From a virus (taxonomy: Duplodnaviria; Heunggongvirae; Uroviricota; Caudoviricetes), in the IMG/VR virus record IMGVR_UViG_2617270979_000006: a stretch of 18,673 nucleotides of DNA. One strand, 5' to 3'. Made by a program: the position numbers and the translations under genes. A model generated the notes under the pieces. It was not told where the DNA came from and made no database searches. It was given only the letters and a program-made list of their open reading frames with translations. Of the stretch, positions 1 to 17,389 are shown in pieces (position 1 is the first letter of the stretch; each line of letters starts with the position of its first letter).

Positions 1-483
1 CAGGCTGTTTGCGCATTGATGCCGAGATACGCTTCCAGTCTTCGCGGTCGTTGTCGATAACTTCATTTTTTGCCCAGCGATGGATGCTGCCGTCAATGTT
101 TCCGGCATCCACATCACCAGGCCAGAGAGCGTAGGCCAGTTCGTCATCCAGTGTTTTCCATGTCTGCTTGTATTGCGATGAATGGCAGCAATGACCGGGC
201 TGATTTTTCCTGTTGAATTTTCAGTGTACTGTTGATTGGCTCTGGCGCGGGCGAGATCAACAACAGACGTGTATTTTCCGGTTTCCTTGCGTTCACCTTC
301 GCGACGTTTTTTCCAGATGCGCATCTCTGCCTGAATTTCGGGCCATTTAGCACCAGGAATACATTTATGCTTAACCCACCCAATGGCGTGCAACTTAAGC
401 TCCGGATATTCCCGTCTGAACAGGCGCGTAAGACTGGCAAAATGCCCGTAAAAAGCTCTCAAGGGCAAAGCTGAAGAAACCAT
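1..483 (-). CDS. Hypothetical protein, partial (start in window at 483, 3' end runs off the left edge)
   Basis: Minus-strand frame is open from ATG at 483..481 to position 1 with no stop (161 codons, MVSSALPLRAFYGHFASL...RHQCANSL). Absent from the ORF track only because it has no in-window stop. No clear Shine-Dalgarno; family not recognised. Confidence 0.45.
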   Translation of the reverse strand, partial: MVSSALPLRAFYGHFASLTRLFRREYPELKLHAIGWVKHKCIPGAKWPEIQAEMRIWKKRREGERKETGKYTSVVDLARARANQQYTENSTGKISPVIAAIHRNTSRHGKHWMTNWPTLSGLVMWMPETLTAASIAGQKMKLSTTTAKTGSVSRHQCANSL

Positions 484-903
484 CTGCGGTTGATCCGGAC
501 CTTATCTGGTCATTACCTGATGGAGAAATACGTCGTTACGACAGGCGTCATAATATGATTTGTACTGAGTGTCGTAAAAGCGAAGTTATGCAGCGCATAT
601 TGTCGTTTTATCAGGGGGATGTTCGGTATTTATTGAAGTGACGAGATTAAAGTGCATTAGTTCAGATGCAAATTGACATTTTGTTGCACAGGGTAGAGCT
701 AGCGTGGTTGTCCGCTTTGTGCCAACAGCGGACATTATGGAAGGTCAGAGTTAAAGATTAAAATGGGATGCTGTGTGTTTTCTCCAGGTTTTGCTCTATA
801 CCTTTCGGGATACTCCACCGACAGAATACGAAAATCAACATTATCAACGGCTCGAAGTGTCTAGATTATCCATGGCAATTCATGGGAAATCCCATCCAAC
901 GGC

Positions 904-2295
904 TTATGCTTCATGTTGCTTTTTGAGATCGCTTCTAGCATAGCTCCACTCAATAATGTTGTCGGGTCGTTGCTGATCGAAAAGGATACGGGATTCAATA
1001 CCATTACCTAAAAAGCTGGTATTCCCATCTACGTAAGAAGCTATCCCTTGTGAACCAACACGAAGAATATTTTCTAATGGCTGCTTTGTTCTTGCTGCAT
1101 CGCTAAGGAGATATAAACCCGGGTACGTTTTGTTAGCACGGTGAAAAAAAAGTTCATTGTCAAAACACATGACGATGATTATTTGTCCCGACATGAGATC
1201 GGAGAGCATTTCAGTTGGCAGATGCAAACTCATAAATGGTCGAGACAAAGGGTCAAAGAATGAATCATTTATATTCACAACAGGGCTTTTTATACCGAGA
1301 CTATCCATCCATCCATTGAAGGCAACAAAGCCCATTTCAGAATCACGGTACATACCTAAGAACAAACATTCATCAATAGTATCAATTGCCCAATTTTTTC
1401 CTCCGCGAATAATCTCCCACATTTTAACTAAGCGGTGGGTATAAAATTCAGACGGATGATCTATCTCATTGATTTTAACTTTAGACTGATGAAAGTTGTC
1501 AAAGCCCTCGCCAGTATTAATCGCCTCCAGAACATTCATGCCACGAATGATTTGCCTTTTTATGCGATTAAATTGCTTAACATCATTATCAGGCATATTG
1601 TTAATGAAGTTTTCTTCAAAGTGCGGACATTCTGAGATAACAGAAAATTCAGCAGCTTCATAAAGCTCATTATTCTTTTCACCTGTTTTAACTTCCACGA
1701 GCTGGAAGCCATCCAGTAGATTAAAGGTGACTAAATCTCCCACATGAACAAATGTGCTCATGTCAGAGACAATCGCTACGGAGTGTTTGTCCTGGTTGAT
1801 AAGATCGGCTGCGACCATAGAATCAATTATGTTATCTTCTGATAGATTGTCATTGCTTGCATTAATAGGTAAACGCCGCAAACTAGAGTGTTCTTCATCA
1901 AGAATGCTCCAAATTATTGAGTCAATACAACGGCGAAGAATAAGAATTTCAAATTTTTTTAAACTTATTTCATCAATACACTTTTCTTTATTTTCTTTAT
2001 CCTTGTTTCGATGGTGCTCTTTTTTTTCAGTTTCCAATCTTTTTATATCTCTCAGCCGAATAATAATCTCAAAAGATATGATTTTTTGTGAGTCTTTCCA
2101 ATTTTTGAGACAGGTTTCATACTCTGCAAGAAAATCCTCATCATTGGAAGGTAGTTCTTGAATTGGATTCCCTCCCCTTATCATTTTGGCAAGTGCATGC
2201 ATTAAAGATACATAATGAGGTGATAAAATTGTCCAAAACTTCCTAAACGGTTTGTACTTTTCAAGAAAAGTTGACTCATCAGTATAATTCATCAT
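904..2295 (-). CDS. Uncharacterised 463-aa protein, downstream partner of the AbiH-like gene; central D-x14-E-V-K motif suggests a possible PD-(D/E)xK nuclease core
   Basis: Long ORF in visibly AT-rich DNA. Track start is TTG at 2301; the ATG at 2295 is preferred because GAGG lies 6 nt upstream. Lies 89 nt downstream of the AbiH-like gene on the same strand. Motif HVGDLVTFNLLDGFQLVEVK maps to 1687-1737. Lysine/glutamate-rich segment near the N-terminus. Confidence 0.7.
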   Translation of the reverse strand: MMNYTDESTFLEKYKPFRKFWTILSPHYVSLMHALAKMIRGGNPIQELPSNDEDFLAEYETCLKNWKDSQKIISFEIIIRLRDIKRLETEKKEHHRNKDKENKEKCIDEISLKKFEILILRRCIDSIIWSILDEEHSSLRRLPINASNDNLSEDNIIDSMVAADLINQDKHSVAIVSDMSTFVHVGDLVTFNLLDGFQLVEVKTGEKNNELYEAAEFSVISECPHFEENFINNMPDNDVKQFNRIKRQIIRGMNVLEAINTGEGFDNFHQSKVKINEIDHPSEFYTHRLVKMWEIIRGGKNWAIDTIDECLFLGMYRDSEMGFVAFNGWMDSLGIKSPVVNINDSFFDPLSRPFMSLHLPTEMLSDLMSGQIIIVMCFDNELFFHRANKTYPGLYLLSDAARTKQPLENILRVGSQGIASYVDGNTSFLGNGIESRILFDQQRPDNIIEWSYARSDLKKQHEA

Positions 2296-2384
2296 AACCA
2301 AACCTCATTCCTCTTATCTATTTTCCTCAAGGTATAAAATACCAGCCTTTTTTACATAATTATAGTTATAATATGAAGTCTCAT

Positions 2385-3254
2385 TCAGATATCTTCATAC
2401 TGTACGTAAGAAATATTTGAGCCTCTGATACCATAATCTTCTAAACTGCCTGATTTTTTCTCACCTCTATATAAAGCAACTATCCATCGAGCATTTTCTT
2501 GGATGCTTTTATTTATTTCAGTAAAGTATTCACCGTCAACTTCGGCGAGCGAGTGGCCTAAAACGATGACCTCGTCCACATTTTTAAGCGATGAGAAAAA
2601 AACGTTTTCTTCTTTAATTATGTCTTCGCTGGGCTTGAATGTATTACCGAAGTATTCGTTTATTCTGTCGTATGCCTCTGCTATTCTTGTATCTTGATCC
2701 GGTCCTATATATGGATTTAGTGACTTTTCCACCCTAAAACTATGACCAAGTATGAGATCGTCATCGTAACTACAATTGCCGTGAATATGTATGATTTGCT
2801 CGTCTGGAACGGCATAGATCTGCTGCAAGGTATTTGTATAATTAAATGAAAAATAGATGCTTTCTCTTGGTATGGGCGGGATGTATTGCTTAGGATTGTA
2901 AGCATCGGCTATGTTAATCCCTTTAACCCAATCAGCGAATTGCTCCTTCAAACGAGCTGACAGCATTTGTGTGATTTTATTTACTTCATATTGGTAATCG
3001 TGATGATAAGCATCGCTCCAATCATCGGTATTGTATGAAGCCAAAAATATCTCACTGTTTTGAAGGATAAGCTCATAATCAATTTCACCTAAAGCATTTT
3101 CTAACTCATTCCACTCGTCCCCAGCAGGAATGTATTCTTCTATCGCGTCATATAGATCTTGGTCATTTTTTTCTACATACGACTTAAAGTGCTTGTATCC
3201 TGTTGGTAAGCCATGACGCATGTCAAATCCATTTCCTATTATGTAAAGCCTCAT
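2385..3254 (-). CDS. AbiH-family abortive infection protein (289 aa)
   Basis: N-terminus MRLYIIGNGFDMRHGLPTGYKHF matches the hallmark IIGNGFD-x-HGL motif of the AbiH family (Pfam Bacteriophage abortive infection AbiH), with further FNYTNT, HIHG and LGHS motifs. Start moved from track position 3305 to the internal ATG at 3254, which has AAGGGA about 7 nt upstream. AT-rich codon usage. Confidence 0.75.
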   Translation of the reverse strand: MRLYIIGNGFDMRHGLPTGYKHFKSYVEKNDQDLYDAIEEYIPAGDEWNELENALGEIDYELILQNSEIFLASYNTDDWSDAYHHDYQYEVNKITQMLSARLKEQFADWVKGINIADAYNPKQYIPPIPRESIYFSFNYTNTLQQIYAVPDEQIIHIHGNCSYDDDLILGHSFRVEKSLNPYIGPDQDTRIAEAYDRINEYFGNTFKPSEDIIKEENVFFSSLKNVDEVIVLGHSLAEVDGEYFTEINKSIQENARWIVALYRGEKKSGSLEDYGIRGSNISYVQYEDI

Positions 3255-3357
3255 TGTTTTTCCCTTAGTCGAATTGTATAAAAATACTAACATGGCCTGC
3301 TCCACGTTGACTACTATCCCCTCCTTTGAGTAATGCCTTCATCAGATGTAACAACAT

Positions 3358-3654
3358 TTGCGAGCTTCCACAGTTCGCTCAAAGCGGACTAGAAGGTTAG
3401 CTTGCGTCGGACTTGGCGTATTTAAAGAAGTGCTGGTGGAGACTGGTTGTTGTGTTCCATTTCTACAGAACAAAATCACAGAAACTATACCCAATAGTTA
3501 TATTGAATCAATGATGAGACAGCCTCATATTTATCAGGACTGGTGTACGTCCAATACAGGAGGTTGTCGTGCTGGTTCTCAAATGTGCGCTAGCTATTGC
3601 GGCTGTAATGGCAATTTATTGTCTTGCTGTTGTTCTTACGGATCGCCTTTCTGA
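3358..3654 (+). CDS. Questionable Cys-rich small ORF (98 codons from TTG; 47-aa version from ATG at 3511)
   Basis: C-terminal part MMRQPHIYQDWCTSNTGGCRAGSQMCASYCGCNGNLLSCCCSYGSPF has 9 Cys in 47 residues and is Gly/Ser/Asn-rich. No convincing RBS before any candidate start. Divergent from the AbiH promoter region, upstream of hok. Confidence 0.25.
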   Translation: MRASTVRSKRTRRLACVGLGVFKEVLVETGCCVPFLQNKITETIPNSYIESMMRQPHIYQDWCTSNTGGCRAGSQMCASYCGCNGNLLSCCCSYGSPF

Positions 3655-3812
3655 TTGATTTTATATTGGCGAGGTGACGTGAGTTAAGTAGAATTGCTGC
3701 GGGTGCTTGAGGCTATCTGCCTCAGGCATGAACACCAAAGGCAGATAGAGAAAAGCCCCAGTTAACATTACGCGTCCTGCAAGACGCTTAACATTAATCT
3801 GAGGCCAATTTC

Positions 3813-4025
3813 ATGCTAGACACATGTAGGTTAGCCTCTTACGTGCCGAAAGGCAAGGAGAAGCAGGCTATGAAGCAGCAAAAGGCGATGTTAATCGCCC
3901 TGATCGTCATCTGTTTAACCGTCATAGTGACGGCACTGGTAACGAGGAAAGACCTCTGCGAGGTACGAATCCGAACCGGCCAGACGGAGGTCGCTGTCTT
4001 CACAGCTTACGAACCTGAGGAGTAA
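3813..4025 (+). CDS. Mok-like leader reading frame, in-frame N-terminal extension of Hok
   Basis: MLDTCRLASYVPKGKEKQA precedes the Hok Met in the same frame, the same arrangement as E. coli MokC/HokC (MLNTCR...) as I recall it. Confidence 0.55.
   Translation: MLDTCRLASYVPKGKEKQAMKQQKAMLIALIVICLTVIVTALVTRKDLCEVRIRTGQTEVAVFTAYEPEE
3870..4025 (+). CDS. hokD: Hok/Gef family type I toxin (HokD/RelF-like, 51 aa)
   Basis: MKQQKAMLIALIVICLTVIVTALVTRKDLCEVRIRTGQTEVAVFTAYEPEE: single transmembrane helix plus conserved Hok C-terminus. AAGGAG lies 9 nt upstream of the ATG. Followed by a hairpin (4033-4054) and a terminator. Confidence 0.9.
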   Translation: MKQQKAMLIALIVICLTVIVTALVTRKDLCEVRIRTGQTEVAVFTAYEPEE

Positions 4026-6363: not shown

Positions 6364-6888
6364 TTATTGTTTAACCCATAATAGTTCATTGACATTGAAT
6401 CCCAACTTTTGAGCGGTACGCACATAGTCTGCTTTTACATTATCTGGAATAGTTTGGGTCCTTGCCAGAATCCATAGGTATTCTCTGTTCGGACCACTGA
6501 CAAGAGCATACTTATACTCATCATCCAGTTTGATTACATTATAGCCACCATAGAAGGGGCCAAAAAACGAAACTTTCAACGCTGCAGTTTTAGTATCTCC
6601 AGTAAAGTATGCTTTACCTTCGCTCTCGCTCCATTTGTTTTTCGTTGGATCGTATCCACGGTTAAGTACGCGAATCCCTCCGTCGTTCCGTTTTTCATAA
6701 GTAGCGCTGACCTGTTCCAGACCACGTTCGAACCAGTTCTCGAGGCGAGCTATTTCATACCATTTTCCGAGGTAGCGGTTGGCGTCAAAATTTGTAATCG
6801 GCTGCACACCTTTAGGTGGTGTCGGGGCCTTACATGCTATAAGAGTGAAAGAGAGTGCAATGCCAGTCAACACAGGCCATAACTTCAT
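6364..6888 (-). CDS. blc: Bacterial lipocalin Blc-like outer-membrane lipoprotein (174 aa)
   Basis: MKLWPVLTGIALSFTLIACKAPTPPKG: signal peptide with lipobox LIAC. Strong similarity to E. coli Blc as recalled (NFDANRYLGKWYEIARLENWFERGLE..., KAYFTGDTKTAALKVSFFGPFYGGYNVI). AGGA 7 nt upstream of the start. Confidence 0.85.
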   Translation of the reverse strand: MKLWPVLTGIALSFTLIACKAPTPPKGVQPITNFDANRYLGKWYEIARLENWFERGLEQVSATYEKRNDGGIRVLNRGYDPTKNKWSESEGKAYFTGDTKTAALKVSFFGPFYGGYNVIKLDDEYKYALVSGPNREYLWILARTQTIPDNVKADYVRTAQKLGFNVNELLWVKQ

Positions 6889-7080
6889 AATAAATCCTGT
6901 ACTTTTGATAGTTGAGAGTAAGTATGAAAGATAGATGAGTACGACCGATCACTTAAAGAACTTTCCTACTATATTAGGAATAGTCAATAACAGAAAAATT
7001 GTCAGTGATGAAGCCAGAAAGGCAATTTAGTCCGTGCACTACAAAGTTTATGTGTTAATGAATTAGTCAAGGGGGAGGAA

Positions 7081-8040
7081 ATGATAAAAAAACCTGTGAT
7101 TGGGATCAGCGGTTGTTTGGGCGGTTCTGCTGTTCGTTTTGATGGTGGTCACAAAAGAGATGACTTTTTAATGGACAAATTAGTGGAATGGGTAACATTC
7201 AGACCAGTATGTCCGGAAATGGCTATAGGGCTGCCAGTTCCGCGTCCTGCTCTACGACTTGTGCGCTCGAAGCAAGGAAATATACGGATGTGTTTCAGCC
7301 ACGACCAGAATGAGGATGTGACAGAGAGAATGACAGAGTTTAGTCGTTCTTATATGGACAAATTAAAGGATGTATCGGGGTTTGTGGTTTGTGCTAAATC
7401 TCCCAGCTGTGGCATGGAGCGCGTGCGTGTCTATGATGAAAATGGTAATCGAGGTCGTAAAGATGGAGTGGGACTATTTACGAGCACTTTGATGGAAAAG
7501 TTTTCCTGGCTACCGGTTGAGGAGGATGGGCGATTACATGATCCAGTGCTTCGTGAGAATTTTATTGAAAGAGTTTTTGCTTTGCATGAGCTCAATCACC
7601 TTTACAAGGAGAAATTATCAAGAAGAGAGTTATTAGCTTTTCATAGTCGTTATAAGCTTCAGTTGTTGGCGCATAGCCAGGCAGGCTATAAAGATATGGG
7701 ACCATTTGTGGCTGCAATACACGAGTGGGCGGACCTTGAATCATACTTTGAGGTGTATCGTGATAATCTGATGGCGATTCTCAGAAAACCAGCATCACGT
7801 AAAAATCACACGAATGTGCTGATGCATATACAGGGGTATTTTAGTAATTACTTAAGTACACGCCAGCGTAAAGAGTTGAGCGAGGTTATACTTAACTATC
7901 GCTTTGGCACATTGCCTCTTCTTGCGCCGTTGACTCTGCTGAAGCATTATCTGGGTGAGTATCCTAATGATTACTTGCTTACACAGAATTACTTCGATCC
8001 CTATCCGGAAGAACTGGCTCTAAGACTGAAGGTGAATTAA
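7081..8040 (+). CDS. TudS (DUF523) - DUF1722 fusion protein, RudS-like putative thiouridine desulfidase (319 aa)
   Basis: N-terminal domain carries the three conserved Cys expected for the TudS [4Fe-4S] site (GISGCLGG, RPVCPE, CAKSPSCG). C-terminal half resembles YbgA/DUF1722 (HSRYKLQLLAHSQ, HTNVLMHIQGYFS). Strong RBS GGGGGAGG. Confidence 0.75.
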   Translation: MIKKPVIGISGCLGGSAVRFDGGHKRDDFLMDKLVEWVTFRPVCPEMAIGLPVPRPALRLVRSKQGNIRMCFSHDQNEDVTERMTEFSRSYMDKLKDVSGFVVCAKSPSCGMERVRVYDENGNRGRKDGVGLFTSTLMEKFSWLPVEEDGRLHDPVLRENFIERVFALHELNHLYKEKLSRRELLAFHSRYKLQLLAHSQAGYKDMGPFVAAIHEWADLESYFEVYRDNLMAILRKPASRKNHTNVLMHIQGYFSNYLSTRQRKELSEVILNYRFGTLPLLAPLTLLKHYLGEYPNDYLLTQNYFDPYPEELALRLKVN

Positions 8041-8446
8041 CTGTATGCGATATCATCTGAAAGTGATGAGTTCCTGTATGCAGGATATTTACAATCGTAA
8101 AAACTACGCTATGATGCTCATAGTGTCAGTTTTTATAAAAATCCTGTTCACGCTAAAGAAAACATTGAGATGCAATTTAATGTTGGTAAACATACCAGCC
8201 CCAAAAGATTTTATTCAATCTGTTTTTATATGAAGATATTTCAAGTGAATATAAAGAGCATATAATATTATTATTGCACGCAGCTATTATAATATAACAG
8301 ATTAGTTTAATGATTTGTTTTTTGTGAGTTAAACACATGGTTTTATAGTTGTGATGCAATGAGATTTTCCTTATTGTTGAACTGGCGAATATTGATTTTC
8401 CACCTATACTTACCTGGTGTAACCCCAATGATATCAGGTGGATAAT

Positions 8447-9160
8447 ATGTCATACATATGTTCTATCATTTTGGTGTTGAACTCGTTTGGTGTCCGAATT
8501 GGTAAAGAAGATATTTTGTTTAAAAAAGGAAATGCTGTCCTCATTGAATACAATTTAAAAGATCTTTTTTCGTCAAATACAGATCATCTAATGATCGTAG
8601 ATGTTGAGGAGAAAACAGTTAATGATTTCTTTAAAAACTACACACTCTCACCTTTTTCTGTAAGAAGGTTTTATCCGTCATACTTGATAGTAGAATGTGA
8701 AGATTTTTCATTGTTAAAGAACTTGGTTGCATGCTTGAATTGTGATAGCAAAACCGTGGATGTAGTTAGAAATCAAATATCACTTGCATGTCTTGCTGTC
8801 TTATCTTCAGAGAAAATAGTGCAAAGTTTTTTGTTCGGAAGTCTTAATAACTTAGGTTGTAAAGTTAAGGCTATTATTCACTCGGATATCTCAGCGTCAT
8901 GGAGACTTTGTGATATATCTTCAAGATTATATATGAGCGAGAGTTTGTTAAAAAGAAAATTAAAAGACGAAGGATTATCGTTTAGTAAATTAATTCTTGA
9001 AGAACGAATGATGATGGCGCAAAGATTATTGATCTACAGTAACCATACTGTCGGCAAGGTGGCGGGAATATGCGGGTATGACAATGCATCATATTTTGTA
9101 AGTGTTTTTAGAGGATATTTTGGTGTGCCTCCGCACCAATATTTATCAAGATTTTCTTAG
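8447..9160 (+). CDS. AraC/XylS-family transcriptional regulator, AppY/GadX/YdeO-like (237 aa)
   Basis: C-terminal double HTH (SESLLKRKLKDEGLSFSKLILEERMMMAQRLL, GYDNASYFVSVFRGYFGVPPHQY). N-terminus MSYICSIILVLNSFGVRIG...FKKGNAVL parallels prophage-encoded AppY as recalled. AT-rich gene preceded by about 400 bp of AT-rich DNA. Confidence 0.8.
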   Translation: MSYICSIILVLNSFGVRIGKEDILFKKGNAVLIEYNLKDLFSSNTDHLMIVDVEEKTVNDFFKNYTLSPFSVRRFYPSYLIVECEDFSLLKNLVACLNCDSKTVDVVRNQISLACLAVLSSEKIVQSFLFGSLNNLGCKVKAIIHSDISASWRLCDISSRLYMSESLLKRKLKDEGLSFSKLILEERMMMAQRLLIYSNHTVGKVAGICGYDNASYFVSVFRGYFGVPPHQYLSRFS

Positions 9161-9228
9161 AAGATATGATGTGATGGCATTTTATAAAGTTATTTTTTGA
9201 AGTGTAAGATTATACGATATTTTTAGCT

Positions 9229-9260
9229 ACGCCAGAATAATTGCTGGCGTTTTTCTTTTT
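9229..9260 (+). terminator. Intrinsic terminator after the AraC-like gene
   Basis: Stem acgccag / ctggcgt with 8-nt loop, followed by tttttcttttt. Confidence 0.6.
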
Positions 9261-9882: not shown

Positions 9883-10906
<1,024 letters not shown>

Positions 10907-11269
10907 GGTAATATTAAATCGGAACATTTACATCGCGGAATGTAAAATTTAAATAAAAAGGACTCTTCCATGAGCCAAAATTCCTGAAATCTTAAGGGTA
11001 AGATAAAAGGTCTTAATCAGAATGACACGTTATTATTAATAAATAAAGCTATTCTTTCATTGCTGTGTTTTTCTTTACAAAAGTAATCCTTGCTATGGGT
11101 GGTTAATCATGCGTTAATGGTGTTCTGGTTTGTTACAAATTTATCTGAAGCAGTCATTGTTATAATTTTATTATTTGTACCTCTTGAGATTTCCTTGTTG
11201 GTTTTTCTCTCTGATATTTTTTTTCGGACCATTCTGCCCAAGGGCTAATTTCTTCAAAAGGTAATAATT
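10907..11269 (+). promoter_or_regulatory. Long AT-rich leader/promoter region of the csp gene (candidate cold-shock 5' UTR)
   Basis: About 360 nt of ORF-free AT-rich DNA with a perfect TATAAT near 11160 and TTGCTA-N18-TTAATG near 11085-11115. CspA-family genes are known to have long structured 5' UTRs. The transcription start is not determinable by eye. Confidence 0.4.
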
Positions 11270-11482
11270 ATGTCTAACAAAATGACTGGTTTAGTGAAAT
11301 AGTTTAACCCTGAAAAAGGTTTTGGTTTCATCACGCCGAAAGATGGCAGCAAAGATGTGTTTGTCCATTTCTCAGCAATTCAGAGCAACGATTTCAAAAC
11401 ATTAACTGAGAATCAGGAAGTTGAATTTGGTATTGAGAACGGACCTAAAGGTCCTGCCGCTGTTCATGTAGTGGCGCTTTGA
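11270..11482 (+). pseudogene. cspI: CspA-family cold-shock protein gene (CspI-like) interrupted by an in-frame amber codon at codon 11
   Basis: Reads [72 protein letters not shown]-stop. The TAG at 11300-11302 replaces the invariant Trp (TGG) of the WFN motif. No downstream in-frame Met, so no full-length product without suppression. Confidence 0.8.
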
Positions 11483-11681
11483 GGTAGACAATATTACAAA
11501 CCATATTCACTTTAGATGCCCGTGTTGTCATGGTTCCCAGTATAGAACATCATCTTTTGATGTTTCTGACATGAATCCTTTCGGGGCAAAATGTATCTTT
11601 TGTAAATCAATGATGATTACATTTGATAATATTTCACAATACTTAAATGCCAGCCGTCTGTCGTTGGATTTAAAAAAGTGA
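11472..11681 (+). pseudogene. Zinc-ribbon small ORF (YdfK/YnaE-like, by recollection) lacking a start codon for its conserved N-terminal part
   Basis: Open frame ...FRCPCCHGSQYRTSSFDVSDMNPFGAKCIFCKSMMITFDNISQYLNASRLSLDLKK with two Cys pairs (CPCC, CIFC). No ATG/GTG/TTG between the upstream stop (11469-11471) and the internal ATG at 11571. Confidence 0.35.
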
Positions 11682-11686
11682 AAATG

Positions 11687-11709
11687 AAGGCTCCTTCGGG
11701 AGCTTTTTT
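11687..11709 (+). terminator. Intrinsic terminator after the csp / zinc-ribbon unit
   Basis: Stem aaggctcc / ggagcttt (one G.U) with UUCG tetraloop, followed by a T run. Confidence 0.6.
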
Positions 11710-11753
11710 GCTTGGTATCTATTCGATGGATACTCACATACTACGGTAACATC

Positions 11754-11984
11754 ATGAAAAAAATCATGGTTTTTTTTAACTCTGAACCAGCAGTGGTAGT
11801 GCCAGCGATGACTGGAGTTAACACCATCATGCGTGAATATCCAAATGGCGAAAAAACACACCTTACTGTAATGGCCGCAGGGTTTCCATCTCTGACCGGA
11901 GATCATAAAGTCATTTATGTAGCAGCGGATCGACATGTAACTTCAGAAGAAATTCTGGAAGCAGCAATGAGACTCTTGAATTGA
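11754..11984 (+). CDS. Hypothetical small protein (76 aa)
   Basis: MKKIMVFFNSEPAVVVPAMTGVNTIMREYPNGEKTHLTVMAAGFPSLTGDHKVIYVAADRHVTSEEILEAAMRLLN. Starts just after a terminator. Weak RBS; family not recognised. Confidence 0.4.
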   Translation: MKKIMVFFNSEPAVVVPAMTGVNTIMREYPNGEKTHLTVMAAGFPSLTGDHKVIYVAADRHVTSEEILEAAMRLLN

Positions 11985-12156
11985 TTTGATTCTAATGCAT
12001 TGATAATAAATGATAATCATCTTTATCTGTTTGTGTGAAATTTAGACCGTCGTATGTTGATTATTGCGATGTTTCATCTTATCTTTTATACGTTTGCTCC
12101 ATATAATTGACACTACTGTGTACCAGGACAGTCATAACAGACTAAAAGAGGAAATG

Positions 12157-12330
12157 ATGAACATTGAAGAGTTAAAAACAAAAACAGAAGCAGATATTTC
12201 TGAATATATAACAAAAAAAATCATTGAGCTTAAGAAAAAGACCGGGAAAGAAGTTACCAGTATCCAGTTTACTGCACGGGAAAAAATGACTGGTCTTGAA
12301 AGCTATGATATCAAGATTGATTTAATCTAG
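12157..12330 (+). CDS. gnsB: Gns-family protein (GnsA/GnsB-like, 57 aa)
   Basis: MNIEELKTKTEADISEYITKKIIELKKKTGKEVTSIQFTAREKMTGLESYDIKIDLI resembles GnsB as recalled. AAGAGGAA RBS; a second in-frame ATG lies at 12154. Confidence 0.8.
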   Translation: MNIEELKTKTEADISEYITKKIIELKKKTGKEVTSIQFTAREKMTGLESYDIKIDLI

Positions 12331-12394
12331 CATGTTTATAGTATTAGCATCAATTTCTCATCAGATGCTATTCAACAATACAAATTACCCATAA

Positions 12395-12419
12395 ACCTCG
12401 TTTTTACGGGGTTTTTTTA
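12395..12419 (+). terminator. Intrinsic terminator after gns
   Basis: Stem acctcg / cggggt (one G.U) with loop ttttta, followed by a run of 8 T. Confidence 0.55.
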
Positions 12420-12625
12420 TATTTAAACATTACCGAATAGATATAAATCTCGATTGTCGATGGTATTGGTTATGTGACAATACCTAGTCTTTCCGGTATG
12501 CCTGAAGAGAATACAAACGACAGATTATGTAAGGGAAACGCGCTGAAACTTTCACTCTTTCATGCTGAGTGATTTGACGTTATATTTTTAGCCGCAAGTG
12601 AAGAGCAAACGAATGGAGCGACAAA

Positions 12626-13930: not shown

Positions 13931-15556
13931 ATGGGTTTTTCATCAGCCCGAAATTTGGGAAGGGACATATCGGCAGGATTTTCCCCACCACGTCGCATGC
14001 CGATTTCGGAGGCTGTTAAAAAATTCATGCGTGTTCCCAAGGGGGCTGGTAACTCGGTGCCATGGGATCCTGAACTGACACCCTACATCATTGAGCCCAT
14101 GAACTGCCTGGCATCGCGTGAATACGATGCGGTGATTTTTGTTGGTCCTGCGCGAACAGGGAAGACCATTGGTCTGATCGATGGATGGATTGTCTATACC
14201 ATCGTTTGCGATCCTTCGGACATGCTCGTTGTGCAGATGACCGAAGATAAGGCCCGCGAGCATTCTAAAAAGCGCCTCGACAGAACGTTCAGAAGCAGTG
14301 CGGCGGTAAAGAAAAGAATGAGTCCACGTCGTAACGACAATAATGTCCATGATAAGACGTTCAGGGATGGCTCGTTCCTTAAAATTGGTTGGCCCTCGGT
14401 CAACATTATGTCGTCGTCGGATTACCGGTTTGTCGCCTTAACCGATTACGACCGTTTTCCGGAGAATATCGACAGCGAGGGTGATGGTTTCTCCCTGGCC
14501 TCAAAACGTACCACCACATTTATGTCCGCCGCGATGACTCTGGTGGAGAGCTCGCCGGGACGTGACATCTGCGACAGCAAATGGCGACGTAAGTCGCCTC
14601 ATGAAGCGCCACCGACGACTGGTATTCTTTCCCTTTACAATCGTGGTGACCGCCGCCGCTGGTACTGGCCATGTCCGCACTGCGGTGAATATTTTCAGCC
14701 AGCTATGGATGCCATGACCGGCTACCGTAATGAACCGGATCCCTTTAAAGCCAGTGAGGCGGCGTATCTACTTTGCCCACACTGCAGCGGCATTATCACT
14801 GCGGAGAAAAAGCGTGAGCTCAATAGTGCAGGAGTCTGGTTGCGTGAAGGTCAGGTCATTGATCGTAACGGCAACGTTTCCGGTGAACCGCGCCGCTCCC
14901 GTAATGGCAGCAAGGATAAGGAACGCGAGCTTACCATTCAGCCAGGCATTATTTACGATGATCTGAAACCCGGCGAAGAAATCGGAATGGTGAAGTCGGA
15001 TCGCCCAAATCCTAACCTTGAAACTTTTCGTAATGGTCAGTTGCGTGCCGTGGCGGCGGGCAGTCGTCTGAGTTTTTCCAGTACAGCGCGCAACTATAAC
15101 GGCACTTACAGCGCCCAGCGTCAGGAGCTGGTTGAATCCACTGATGGCTACCTGATCCTGCAGGACTGGTTTATTGGTGCCGTCACCCGTCCGATGTATC
15201 GTGCCTGGCTGAAACAGGCTGTGGCATCCGGTGTTATCAGGCTACCCCGCGATCTTGACCTTTCTTCACTGTATACCGCGGTGTATTCCGGACCGGTGAT
15301 GCCGTGGATTGACCCTGTTAAGGAGGCTGAGGCCTGGAAAATCCAGATTCGTGGTGGAGCGGCGACAGAATCAGACTGGGTACGTGCTGGTGGTCGTAAT
15401 CCGGATGATGTCAAACGTCGGCGCAAGGCCGAAATTGATGAAAACCGCAAGCTGGATCTGGTATTTGATACCGATCCGGCCAGTGATAAAGGAGGCAGCA
15501 GTGCCGCAACGAAACGACAGGAGCCGCAGCACACCGACGACCAGTCCGAAGAATAA
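13931..15556 (+). CDS. Terminase large subunit GpA-family ATPase domain, with a C-terminal portion that looks portal-like (possible in-frame terL::portal fusion)
   Basis: Walker A VIFVGPARTGKT; GpA-type zinc-finger region WYWPCPHCGEYF...LLCPHCSGI, collinear with lambda gpA N-terminal half as recalled. C-terminal about 200 aa (SFSSTARNYNGTYSAQ...PWIDPVKEAEAWKI...) lacks nuclease motifs and resembles lambda-type portal C-termini. RBS GGAGG. Confidence 0.7.
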   Translation: MGFSSARNLGRDISAGFSPPRRMPISEAVKKFMRVPKGAGNSVPWDPELTPYIIEPMNCLASREYDAVIFVGPARTGKTIGLIDGWIVYTIVCDPSDMLVVQMTEDKAREHSKKRLDRTFRSSAAVKKRMSPRRNDNNVHDKTFRDGSFLKIGWPSVNIMSSSDYRFVALTDYDRFPENIDSEGDGFSLASKRTTTFMSAAMTLVESSPGRDICDSKWRRKSPHEAPPTTGILSLYNRGDRRRWYWPCPHCGEYFQPAMDAMTGYRNEPDPFKASEAAYLLCPHCSGIITAEKKRELNSAGVWLREGQVIDRNGNVSGEPRRSRNGSKDKERELTIQPGIIYDDLKPGEEIGMVKSDRPNPNLETFRNGQLRAVAAGSRLSFSSTARNYNGTYSAQRQELVESTDGYLILQDWFIGAVTRPMYRAWLKQAVASGVIRLPRDLDLSSLYTAVYSGPVMPWIDPVKEAEAWKIQIRGGAATESDWVRAGGRNPDDVKRRRKAEIDENRKLDLVFDTDPASDKGGSSAATKRQEPQHTDDQSEE

Positions 15557-15569
15557 TTCCTGGTTCAGG

Positions 15570-15665
15570 ATGCAGGCTGGTCACCAGAGTGACGCGGATA
15601 TTTATATTTATGACGAGATTGGTTTCTGGGGTGTTACAGCGAAGCAGTTTAGGGTAAATTCGTAA
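15570..15665 (+). pseudogene. N-terminal stub of a phage head maturation (prohead) protease
   Basis: MQAGHQSDADIYIYDEIGFWGVTAKQFRVNS-stop. The IYIYDEIGFWG...TAKQF pattern is the characteristic N-terminus of ClpP/S49-like prohead proteases; the frame terminates after 31 codons. Confidence 0.4.
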
Positions 15666-15737
15666 TGATTACCTAAATACGTTATTCTTTTGTTCAAAAA
15701 GTGATTTTGCTATAGGTAGGGAGTATGTTCTTGGATT

Positions 15738-15772
15738 AAGAATAAAAATCGCCATGAAAGAGCTTCATGGCG
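15738..15772 (-). terminator. Candidate intrinsic terminator on the minus strand within the AT-rich region
   Basis: Perfect 9-bp stem cgccatgaa / ttcatggcg with a 5-nt loop; on the minus strand it is followed by ATTTTTATT. Confidence 0.45.
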
Positions 15773-16476
15773 AGTACATAAACGTACAAAATATGATGAA
15801 AGTAGAGTGGCGTAAGCCACTATATTAAGATATGACAATAGCGAAGAAAAGTAAATAACATTTTATGGGCGTTTAATTGTTAATTATAAAAACTAGAGTG
15901 CCCGATATTGTTTATCTTGCTTTAAAATAATGTACTCAAACCAAATTTTTGAGCTAAAAGCTCAAATAATATAAATGCAATGATAATGTTTAATAAGACA
16001 ATTAGCTTGCTTTGTATTTTCATTTCGGAATACTGTTAAGTAACTTTGATGACACTAACAATAGATCGGAATTTTCTTAGAGTCAATGGTCACTGTTTTT
16101 GCTTGCAAAGCAAATGTTTTTGGTGGTTATAAGTTTTCTTAATATAGTCACCTATGCAACTTGTTCCGTGTGGAGATTAAAGGTTAAAATTTAATGCGAA
16201 GATGGAATTATAATATATTTTTTTATAATTAATTTAACCTTAACATCGTTGCTGGCGGCATGGAAGAAATATCGGGTCTTGCTGATGTCGTGTTGGCACT
16301 TCCTTAGTGCGGTTATCGAATGGCCAGCTGTACCTGTGGGGTAAAAACTTTATATGGGTGCTATTTTTATAATAGCTGGTAAAAACTGGCCGAACTGAAA
16401 TTCACTGTTGATAAAAAAGATGTGTTTGAGTGTATGTCATTGTTTTCTTAATGGAATCCACTAGAATGCAGCGAAT

Positions 16477-16674
16477 TTAAGAAGGTGGGTTTTTATTGGA
16501 ATATAAACTACAATAATGCTCAACTCGTTCGTAGAATTGTTTTTTCTTATTTTTTGGAATGCTAACCATTATATGCATTATGGGGGCGATACTTCCTGAT
16601 AATTTACATGATGCATACATTGAAGCAATAAATTCAATATCATTGTCATCAAAGTTAAAGCTTTCTCCGTCCAT
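16477..16674 (-). CDS. Candidate small protein (65 aa) inside the AT-rich ORF-poor region
   Basis: MDGESFNFDDNDIEFIASMYASCKLSGSIAPIMHIMVSIPKNKKKQFYERVEHYCSLYSNKNPPS, with AAGGAA 5-6 nt upstream of the ATG. No recognisable family; AT-rich DNA produces ORFs by chance. Confidence 0.3.
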   Translation of the reverse strand: MDGESFNFDDNDIEFIASMYASCKLSGSIAPIMHIMVSIPKNKKKQFYERVEHYCSLYSNKNPPS

Positions 16675-17389
16675 TTCAATTCCTTATGTGTTTGGCACAA
16701 CTGATGCTGTATCCCATGAGAATTTATGCAAGTTGTTATGTTTGATTTGATATTGCAATGATAATTGTAGCTAATTGTTTTCAATTGAGTGAAAGTTTAT
16801 TTCGAGTGATTAAGTCGAAAAAAAAGATTTCTCACGGTTAGTAAGCGTATTAGGTTAGTATTCAGATATGAATGGTATTAATGACTAAATTTTCAATCAT
16901 ATATGGATTTTTATGCTGATGAAGATGTTTTATTTGGCGATTCGTCAAGCATCTTCACTTAAGTAATCGTATATTTTAAGAGTGCAAAAGAGAAAGGGAC
17001 AACGTTGCTCGCACTCTGGATTAAATATAGGGTGTTGTTAAACTGCGTTGATACATAATTGTACCGGATATTGAGTGGTCTGAAGTCCCAGTCATTAAGT
17101 AATCGTTTCGTGATATGCCGCAGAAACGTTGTATGCAATAACGTTCTGCGGTTGGCTGATGCACTTTCGAGAGTGTATTGAATAATTTCAAGCCGTTATT
17201 GTTTTTACGCGTAACACCATGAAAAGACTGCTTATCTGTTGGGTATTTTTTGGGGCATATATGGGACAGAAATAGGCCACAGATAGATAGTAAGATCGAA
17301 CTCAGGATGCTTTTGAAAAAATGTAACTATCTGAAAAAACCTAGAAAGCGCCAAGGAAACCACAGAATGAGAAAAAACATCTGTGAATT

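Follow-up and report, generated by a model that had tools for sequence, protein, structure and literature searches.

We found that the AT-rich island near one end of the window (the whole stretch of 18,673 nucleotides analysed here) is very probably a mobile cargo cassette in which two separate single-gene anti-phage systems, AbiH and DS-37, lie head to tail, and not one two-component system. Because each gene is found or works without the other, the island reads as two stacked, autonomous and known defence genes, with no new two-gene architecture. The preliminary description of this DNA had proposed such an architecture, in a candidate novel module that paired AbiH with an uncharacterised 463-aa protein. 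This was not borne out: a clone of the downstream gene that lacks AbiH is active, AbiH occurs alone elsewhere, and both genes had already been described. As a discovery claim the cassette matters little, since AbiH dates back to 1996 and the downstream gene was validated as DS-37 in 2026; it offers instead a base-pair view of prophage defence cargo built from separable single-gene modules, with a junction near position 2358 (Table 1).

The host element is an E. coli Qin-type cryptic prophage, in which ydfJ, pinQ, tfaQ, cspI, rrrQ and ydfU are present. Within it, the cassette occupies 2.7 kb and consists of two co-directional minus-strand genes, which lie where the preliminary description had placed them, with exactly the 89 nt between them that it had reported. 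The island is also more AT-rich than its flanks, as had been proposed: its GC content is 0.376 (0.281 in the spacer), compared with 0.476 in the left flank, 0.44 in sok/hok, 0.467 in the DUF968-rusA-Q region and 0.426 in the whole window. Other AT-rich stretches of the window are as low or lower (about 8000-9250, 10750-12500 and 15500-17250). The hok-adjacent prophage setting was likewise confirmed, with a sok RNA at 3701-3875 (Rfam RF01794, 119.9 bits) and hokD at 3870-4025 on the plus strand (annotated at the equivalent position) adjoining the island. Comparison by blastn with unrelated elements delimited the mobile unit. A Klebsiella lambdoid prophage has only window positions 709-3389 in common with this DNA (88.5% identity) and an Enterobacter IncFIB plasmid only 882-3291 (93.2%), and the flanks are unrelated in both. 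In three kinds of element the two genes travel together, with 88-93% identity at the DNA level and a spacer that stays at 88-90 nt. The island is a defence cargo slot within the prophage.

Table 1. Features of the cassette and its surroundings, in window coordinates.
Feature	Position	Strand	Remarks
Low-GC defence cassette	709..3390	-	limits set by blastn matches to copies of the cassette on other mobile elements
Published pCV1-SC24 (DS-37) clone	802..2384	-	both Table S11 primers match the window uniquely
DS-37 gene	904..2295	-	463 aa, WP_000982358.1; single-gene anti-phage system, D187...E201-x-K203 motif
Spacer with module junction (about 2358)	2296..2384	-	89 nt; only upstream DNA in the published active DS-37 clone
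AbiH gene	2385..3254	-	289 aa from an ATG with a good Shine-Dalgarno sequence
AbiH upstream region	3255..3390	-	putative promoter; travels with AbiH
sok antisense RNA and hokD toxin gene	3701..4025	+	context only, outside the cassette

To the downstream gene we could assign a published identity. The 463-aa protein is WP_000982358.1, found in RefSeq on identical DNA, and the same sequence is listed as SC24, or DS-37, in Tables S6 and S8 of the DefensePredictor study (DeWeirdt et al., Science 2026, PMC13092281). We mapped the published SC24 primers and observed exact and unique matches in the window, the forward primer at 2384..2346 on the minus strand and the other at 802-822 on the plus strand. 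The clone begins at the first base past the AbiH stop codon and does not contain AbiH. According to the supplementary data of that study, the clone in E. coli MG1655 (vector pCV1) gave a -log10(EOP) of 4.32 on Bas69 and 1.94 on SECphi27, which corresponds to reductions in plating of about 10^4.3-fold and 10^1.9-fold, with replication recorded as TRUE (PMC13092281). Because this clone lacks AbiH yet defends, DS-37 needs no AbiH; it is autonomous, and the phenotype does not require both genes. The proposal that the 463-aa gene is an anti-phage gene was therefore correct. The gene itself is the same in both settings, in length and in its exact primer matches; the difference is that DS-37 is handled in isolation in that paper, whereas here AbiH lies upstream. 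In the searched passages and supplementary tables of PMC13092281, the adjacency to AbiH is not discussed.

The upstream gene had been recognized as AbiH from its N-terminus, MRLYIIGNGFDMRHGLP, and this assignment held. Its product matches Pfam PF14253 over the full length (E=6.6e-69; 233.3 bits against a cutoff of 30.9), with residues 3-259 aligned to profile positions 1-258 of 260, and it matches the PADLOC AbiH model in three partial stretches (E=1.3e-27). The family motifs GNGFD-x2-H, NYT, HG and GHS are all present, and residues G7-N8-G9-F10-D11, H14, N138-Y139-T140, H158-G159 and G233-H234-S235 are invariant among 26 homologues, down to 42% identity. RefSeq places the start at 3293, giving a protein of 302 aa (WP_001297700.1). 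The founder of the family is reportedly the Lactococcus lactis abortive-infection gene described by Prevots in 1996. Lactococcal and S. thermophilus AbiH each work as a single gene, and DefenseFinder and PADLOC treat AbiH as a single-gene system. Unlike the lactococcal gene, of which it is a distant orthologue, the present gene is enterobacterial and prophage-borne and has DS-37 downstream. A review of the recent literature describes AbiH proteins as sirtuin (SIR2)-like; when our AbiH alignment was used as a profile against PDB sequences, nothing was found and no sirtuin was recovered. AbiH would most likely abort infection by consuming NAD+.

Close orthologues of the present AbiH gene also have a single-gene arrangement. 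An orthologue with 91% identity stands alone in two different Morganellaceae islands, in Providencia and Morganella, without a constant neighbour. These loci match window positions 2358-3390 by blastn at 89.7% identity, a segment that comprises the gene and some 135 nt in front of it. The genomic context of these orthologues indicates that AbiH stands alone as a gene. Homology to the solo loci ends at 2358, inside the spacer, and AbiH and DS-37 would have been joined by recombination near this position. Once joined, the cassette may have passed between lambdoid prophages and SSU5-like phage-plasmids in the Enterobacteriaceae, where stacked defences with differing phage ranges would benefit the prophage. 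On the minus strand, a scan of the spacer detected no hairpin resembling a terminator, and promoter-like matches in it were not above chance; a TATAAT hexamer can be read at 2364-2359.

To determine how far the two genes keep company, we compared their distributions. Pairing of AbiH with DS-37 is restricted to partners of at least 85% identity (25 of 25 AbiH-linked loci). The E. coli pair represents one clonal cassette, with 65 intact AbiH and 64 intact DS-37 copies in 5426 genomes, all at least 99% identical. Prophages of E. coli and Klebsiella carry the pair, as do IncFIB phage-plasmid-like replicons, and joint occurrence in SSU5-like phage-plasmids has been reported. Solitary relatives of DS-37 are present in P2-like prophages, a Serratia ICE, a Yersinia island, and on Rahnella, Ewingella and Mob-type plasmids; in Aeromonas, DS-37 stands beside Gabija without AbiH. 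Others lie downstream of PD-T4-5-like Abi_2, PDC-S19, AbiK, TIR-like, Mrr/PDC-S02, PDC-S54 and PDC-S18 genes, repeatedly at a distance of 0-40 nt from a single-gene defence. A scan of genome contigs for related loci found three only, and tblastn found no DS-37 relatives in the phage collection. Co-occurrence in other genomes, which the preliminary description had put forward as a check, was thus seen in part: the pair is kept in a single cassette lineage of recent origin (at least 85% identity), and beyond it each gene occurs apart, AbiH alone at 91% and DS-37 relatives alone or with other defences, which argues against a conserved AbiH partner. Two other roles for DS-37 were considered. That of an antitoxin or regulator of the upstream gene was rejected because solo copies are numerous and the clone is active without AbiH, and that of a mobility gene, suggested by integrases and resolvases near several loci, was rejected since the neighbours are overwhelmingly defence genes and a defence phenotype has been published.

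How DS-37 acts is suggested by its conserved residues. The protein has no match in Pfam, PADLOC v2, NCBIfam or PHROG, and its family comprises 681 clusters at 50% identity, with no Pfam match in any of the members scanned. Residues D178, D187, E201, K203, G205, R244, Q248 and P444 are invariant among 47 homologues, down to 20% identity, and the family signature D-D-ExK-Q is invariant. The predicted layout begins with a long helical region at the N-terminus, followed by an alpha/beta core that bears the invariant D...D...E-x-K in the centre and by a C-terminal alpha/beta domain. Near the motif, the model has a helix (153-167), three strands (172-176, 188-192 and 196-200) and a helix (206-221), with D187 at the start of the second strand and E201 and K203 at the end of the third. 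This order fits a PD-(D/E)xK core, in a model whose core pLDDT was 52-66 once the N-terminal helices had been removed. DS-37 would most likely act as a PD-(D/E)xK-type nuclease, with an activity predicted from the motif that it carries, and would cut phage or host nucleic acid after infection is sensed. In its invariant D...D...E-x-K, which the model sets on a helix-strand-strand-strand-helix segment, DS-37 resembles PD-(D/E)xK nuclease defence proteins (such as NERD-domain, Mrr-like and restriction-endonuclease-fold effectors). Foldseek against the PDB returned helical-repeat proteins only and no nuclease, so we do not place DS-37 in the nuclease superfamily at the level of fold. The DS-37 alignment, used as a profile against PDB sequences, gave zero matches, and these searches together with Pfam detected no similarity to a known PD-(D/E)xK member. 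The authors of PMC13092281 file DS-37 under PD-(D/E)XK, but their HHpred match to NERD has a probability of only 0.47, and the nuclease reading is accordingly weak. We set aside the 'EXK position / D position' columns of Table S8 in that paper because the numbers in several rows exceed the protein length; values that fit DS-37 (201-203 / 187) stand in the row of another system. In distant relatives of 669-690 aa the N-terminus is longer by about 250 residues, and a search for gene fusions as evidence of partnership found no Pfam match in these or other distant relatives.

That AbiH and DS-37 form an obligate two-gene system, as sensor and effector or as toxin and regulator, is extremely improbable. 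The genes are indeed co-directional and closely spaced with no terminator between them, and they are kept jointly in the prophages and phage-plasmid-like replicons described above; against this, DS-37 defends when cloned without AbiH, AbiH at 91% identity is solo with a homology break inside the spacer, and DS-37 relatives are solo in many elements. A looser coupling is unlikely, with an appreciable chance of being right: the two genes would each be autonomous yet co-transcribed from the AbiH promoter and selected jointly for synergy or back-up, for example with DS-37 stepping in against a phage that blocks NAD+ depletion. Because the pair travels as a unit with its spacer kept and no terminator, co-transcription or synergy may exist. 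The joint reports in SSU5-like phage-plasmids and the recurrence of DS-37 relatives shortly downstream of other single-gene defences are consistent with such coupling. However, defence islands commonly hold unrelated defence genes stacked tightly in one orientation, and on a plasmid DS-37 is active with the 89-nt spacer as its only upstream DNA. This suggests a promoter of its own, though vector read-through is possible. Two stacked, separate systems remain our preferred reading.

A recurring arrangement with another upstream gene bears on the history of the family. In Pantoea, Erwinia and other loci, a PD-T4-5-like Abi_2 gene occupies the position of AbiH directly upstream of a DS-37 relative. 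PD-T4-5 (Abi_2 / AbiD-F-like) has been validated when carried singly on a plasmid (Vassallo et al. 2022, PMC9519451) and belongs to a HEPN-type family, in contrast to the SIR2-like AbiH. Three separate branches of the DS-37 tree contain such pairs; their spacers measure 16-40 nt, and identities for Abi_2 and its partner are 91-95% with 78-86%, 77.5% with 72%, and 56-57% with 43-45%. Abi_2 and the DS-37-like gene therefore appear to co-diverge across lineages. One possible explanation is that the DS-37 family is a portable accessory module, ancestrally in an operon with an upstream Abi-type effector, and that AbiH replaced Abi_2 in the E. coli/Klebsiella lineage. In a quick neighbour-joining tree, which carries no support values, the closest neighbours of the E. 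coli clade, as sister groups, are the Pantoea Abi_2-linked clade and a solo plasmid copy, consistent with this scenario; in the same tree, however, solo members are interleaved. Given that DS-37 of E. coli works without a partner, that PD-T4-5 has been validated on its own, and that correlated divergence is also expected from two independent genes hitch-hiking on one cassette, we regard this history as very doubtful. The broader proposal that DS-37-family genes are more than stacked, and make up enduring operons in which they co-evolve with a single-gene abortive-infection effector upstream (Abi_2/PD-T4-5-like, AbiH, TIR-like, PDC-S19 or AbiK), also seems quite unlikely. If true, the two genes of each operon would be functional partners, for instance in a layered or back-up response, with an effector that can be swapped at the spacer junction, and the AbiH and DS-37 cassette would be the latest such swap. 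The recurring Abi_2 and DS-37-like pair offers a concrete and cheap hypothesis on the synergy of stacked defences.

Two single-gene defences, each autonomous, are stacked in a cargo slot and make up the AT-rich island of this prophage: an AbiH gene and a gene for a 463-aa protein, which appear to have been joined near window position 2358. The preliminary description of two co-directional genes in an AT-rich prophage island beside hok agreed with the coordinates, base composition and neighbours. GC content was 0.376 in the cassette and 0.281 in the spacer between the genes, compared with 0.476 in the left flank, 0.44 in sok/hok and 0.426 in the whole window; further stretches of the window were as AT-rich as the cassette. 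The surroundings are an E. coli Qin-type cryptic prophage (ydfJ, pinQ, tfaQ, cspI, rrrQ, ydfU and hokD), in which the island is bordered by sok/hokD on one side and by a DUF977 gene belonging to the replication module on the other.

Features of the window and loci with Abi_2 and DS-37-like genes (L-numbers are loci of homologues in other genomes)
Feature	Position	Strand	Remarks
AbiH gene	3254-2385	minus	289 aa; RefSeq alternative ATG at 3293 gives 302 aa, WP_001297700.1
Second gene (DS-37)	2295-904	minus	463 aa, WP_000982358.1
Spacer AbiH/DS-37			89 nt
sok	3701-3875		Rfam match
Lipocalin-family gene	6364-6888	minus	second cargo region
YbgA-family gene	7081-8040		second cargo region
240-aa HTH-domain gene	8438-9160		second cargo region; very AT-rich, GC ~0.31
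Abi_2 + DS-37-like loci	L002:6914-9386; L010:4918-7395; L036:3911-6473; L077:2872-5440; also L070-L075, L078

The proposed AbiH identity of the upstream gene was confirmed by an end-to-end Pfam AbiH match (233 bits; cutoff 30.9), by the PADLOC AbiH model and by the motifs GNGFD-x2-H, NYT, HG and GHS, invariant in 26 homologues down to 42% identity. Single-gene action of AbiH has been described in Lactococcus and S. thermophilus. The protein probably causes abortive infection through a SIR2-like, NAD+-consuming activity, as suggested by the literature and by conserved N138 and H158; an AbiH profile search of PDB sequences did not recover a sirtuin.

The 463-aa protein is listed in the DefensePredictor supplement (Science 2026, PMC13092281), whose tables give it as SC24, "Predicted novel defense gene", defensive TRUE, and as DS-37, replication TRUE. 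In that study, transcription units were defined as co-directional genes at most 30 bp apart and were cloned one by one, together with the predicted native promoter, into MG1655 on a low-copy plasmid (here MG1655 pCV1-SC24); -log10(EOP) was 4.32 for Bas69 and 1.94 for SECphi27 (Table S7). Because each of the two cloning primers (Table S11) has a single site in the window, 2384..2346 on the minus strand and 802..822, the active clone corresponds to window 802-2384. Its first base is the first after the AbiH stop codon, and AbiH is absent. Both are defence genes, as first supposed, but the module is not novel, since DS-37 was already published. Both genes are also among the systems of SSU5-like elements in a phage-plasmid survey.

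DS-37 had zero matches in Pfam, PADLOC v2.0, NCBIfam and PHROGs, and the distant members scanned had no Pfam family match. A word-indexed search gave 48 close clusters, exclusively from Enterobacterales or Aeromonas; an exhaustive profile search yielded 681 clusters (50% identity) with E ≤1e-3, 500 of them at ≤1e-10. D178, D187, E201, K203, G205, R244, Q248 and P444 were invariant in 47 members, down to 20% identity. In the AlphaFold model (pLDDT 80.5, pTM 0.81), long helices at the N terminus (52-131) are followed by a central alpha/beta region, and the C-terminal domain is likewise alpha/beta; D187 is placed at the start of strand 188-192, and E201 and K203 at the end of strand 196-200, a predicted order compatible with a PD-(D/E)xK core. 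Table S8 files DS-37 under PDDEXK via an HHpred NERD match (residues 154-204, probability 0.47). Because our fold searches gave no support for nuclease-superfamily membership, a nuclease reading is based on the motif rather than on fold similarity. DS-37 probably uses the D-D-ExK site as a nuclease, and the helical N terminus and the C-terminal domain may serve in sensing or oligomerization. In the stored copy of sheet hhpred_domains (Table S8), several 'EXK position / D position' values exceed protein length, so for several rows these cannot be residue numbers; values matching DS-37 (201-203 / 187) stand on the RED7 row. Relatives of 485-490 aa (P0028-P0047 in our alignment A1) carry a Lys/Arg-rich C-terminal tail of ~25 residues, possibly a nucleic-acid-binding extension, that is missing from the E. 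coli/Klebsiella and Pantoea proteins.

The pair is conserved only within one young lineage, and outside it the genes part. Among 5426 complete E. coli genomes, AbiH was intact in 65 and DS-37 in 64, all ≥99% identical. The pair also occurs in Klebsiella lambdoid prophages, with lambda-P-like replication genes on one side and a dGTPase / DinI / DUF968 region on the other, and on ~110-140 kb replicons of Enterobacter, Klebsiella and Raoultella (IncFIB where typing was read); DNA homology of these elements to the window is confined to the cassette (709-3389 at 88.5%; 882-3291 at 93.2%). In one Klebsiella prophage (L015:2503-4751), the cassette's neighbours are an unannotated 237-aa gene and a dGTPase-type defence gene (PADLOC 2.6e-142), so that three or four defence genes cluster at the same prophage position. 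Part of the E. coli population is losing the cassette: ~51 complete genomes retain only the 5' part of AbiH (matching window 2728-3254 and 3064-3254), having lost the remainder of the gene and the whole of DS-37, and genome H47 carries an IS1 insertion in AbiH.

No terminator separates AbiH and DS-37, and the spacer is preserved in every occurrence of the pair, which leaves room for co-transcription or synergy, although we consider such coupling unlikely. The two-gene AbiH architecture proposed initially was not supported: the DS-37 clone was active without AbiH, the AbiH orthologue occurs solo, and DS-37 relatives occur solo or with other genes. The Providencia/Morganella orthologue (91% identical) is found in two distinct islands and has no recurrent neighbour; DNA homology of these loci covers window 2358-3390 only, stopping within the spacer, 27 nt past the AbiH stop codon. 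Solo DS-37 relatives were found in P2-like prophages, a Serratia ICE, a Yersinia island near PD-T7-1, Rahnella and Ewingella plasmids and a Mob-type contig, and an Aeromonas relative lies between Gabija and an Argonaute-associated nuclease. Others lie directly 3' of differing single-gene defences (Abi_2/PD-T4-5-like, PDC-S19/DUF3644, AbiK, TIR-like, Mrr/PDC-S02, PDC-S54 and PDC-S18).

The remaining new element is the recurrence of Abi_2 + DS-37-like pairs with correlated divergence. In three separate branches of the DS-37 tree, a relative of DS-37 is preceded by Abi_2 (PD-T4-5-like, ~355 aa) at a distance of 16-40 nt; identities of Abi_2 and its partner are 91-95% and 78-86%, 77.5% and 72%, and 56-57% and 43-45%. 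Either a lasting functional partnership or simple hitch-hiking on one cassette could account for this correlation.

Other neighbours were also observed. Upstream of distant relatives (28-29% identity; L095:797-2901, L101:115-1805, L102:2939-5035), at a distance of 2-12 nt, is a 260-aa protein whose weak matches are TIR-effector / nucleoside deoxyribosyltransferase-like; by analogy with AbiH, it would be a second NADase-type neighbour of the family. DUF3644-type proteins (PDC-S19, HEC-08) flank relatives three times, upstream, downstream or convergent (Dickeya L009:4685-5983, Rahnella L026:5595-6308, Serratia L031:6728-7645). On a Bacillus cereus plasmid (L028:2060-5166), an AbiK-type reverse transcriptase (PADLOC 1.3e-196) precedes a DS-37-like gene in three ORFs, likely a pseudogene and the sole Firmicute relative seen.

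About 5 kb present in strains MDR_56 and JSMCR1 (ydfD, dicB, repressor, YdaT and replisome organiser) is missing from the window prophage, and an exonuclease gene fragment is fused straight to the DUF977 region (window 1-408 joined to 404 onward); this copy is therefore a Qin-type remnant in a more advanced state of decay, in which the defence cassette is nevertheless retained. A second cargo region, unlike strain MDR_56, follows the Q antiterminator (6364-9160), and an Rfam match to the cspA thermoregulator (107.9 bits; 11124-11509, plus strand) precedes cspI, the cold-shock gene of the prophage.
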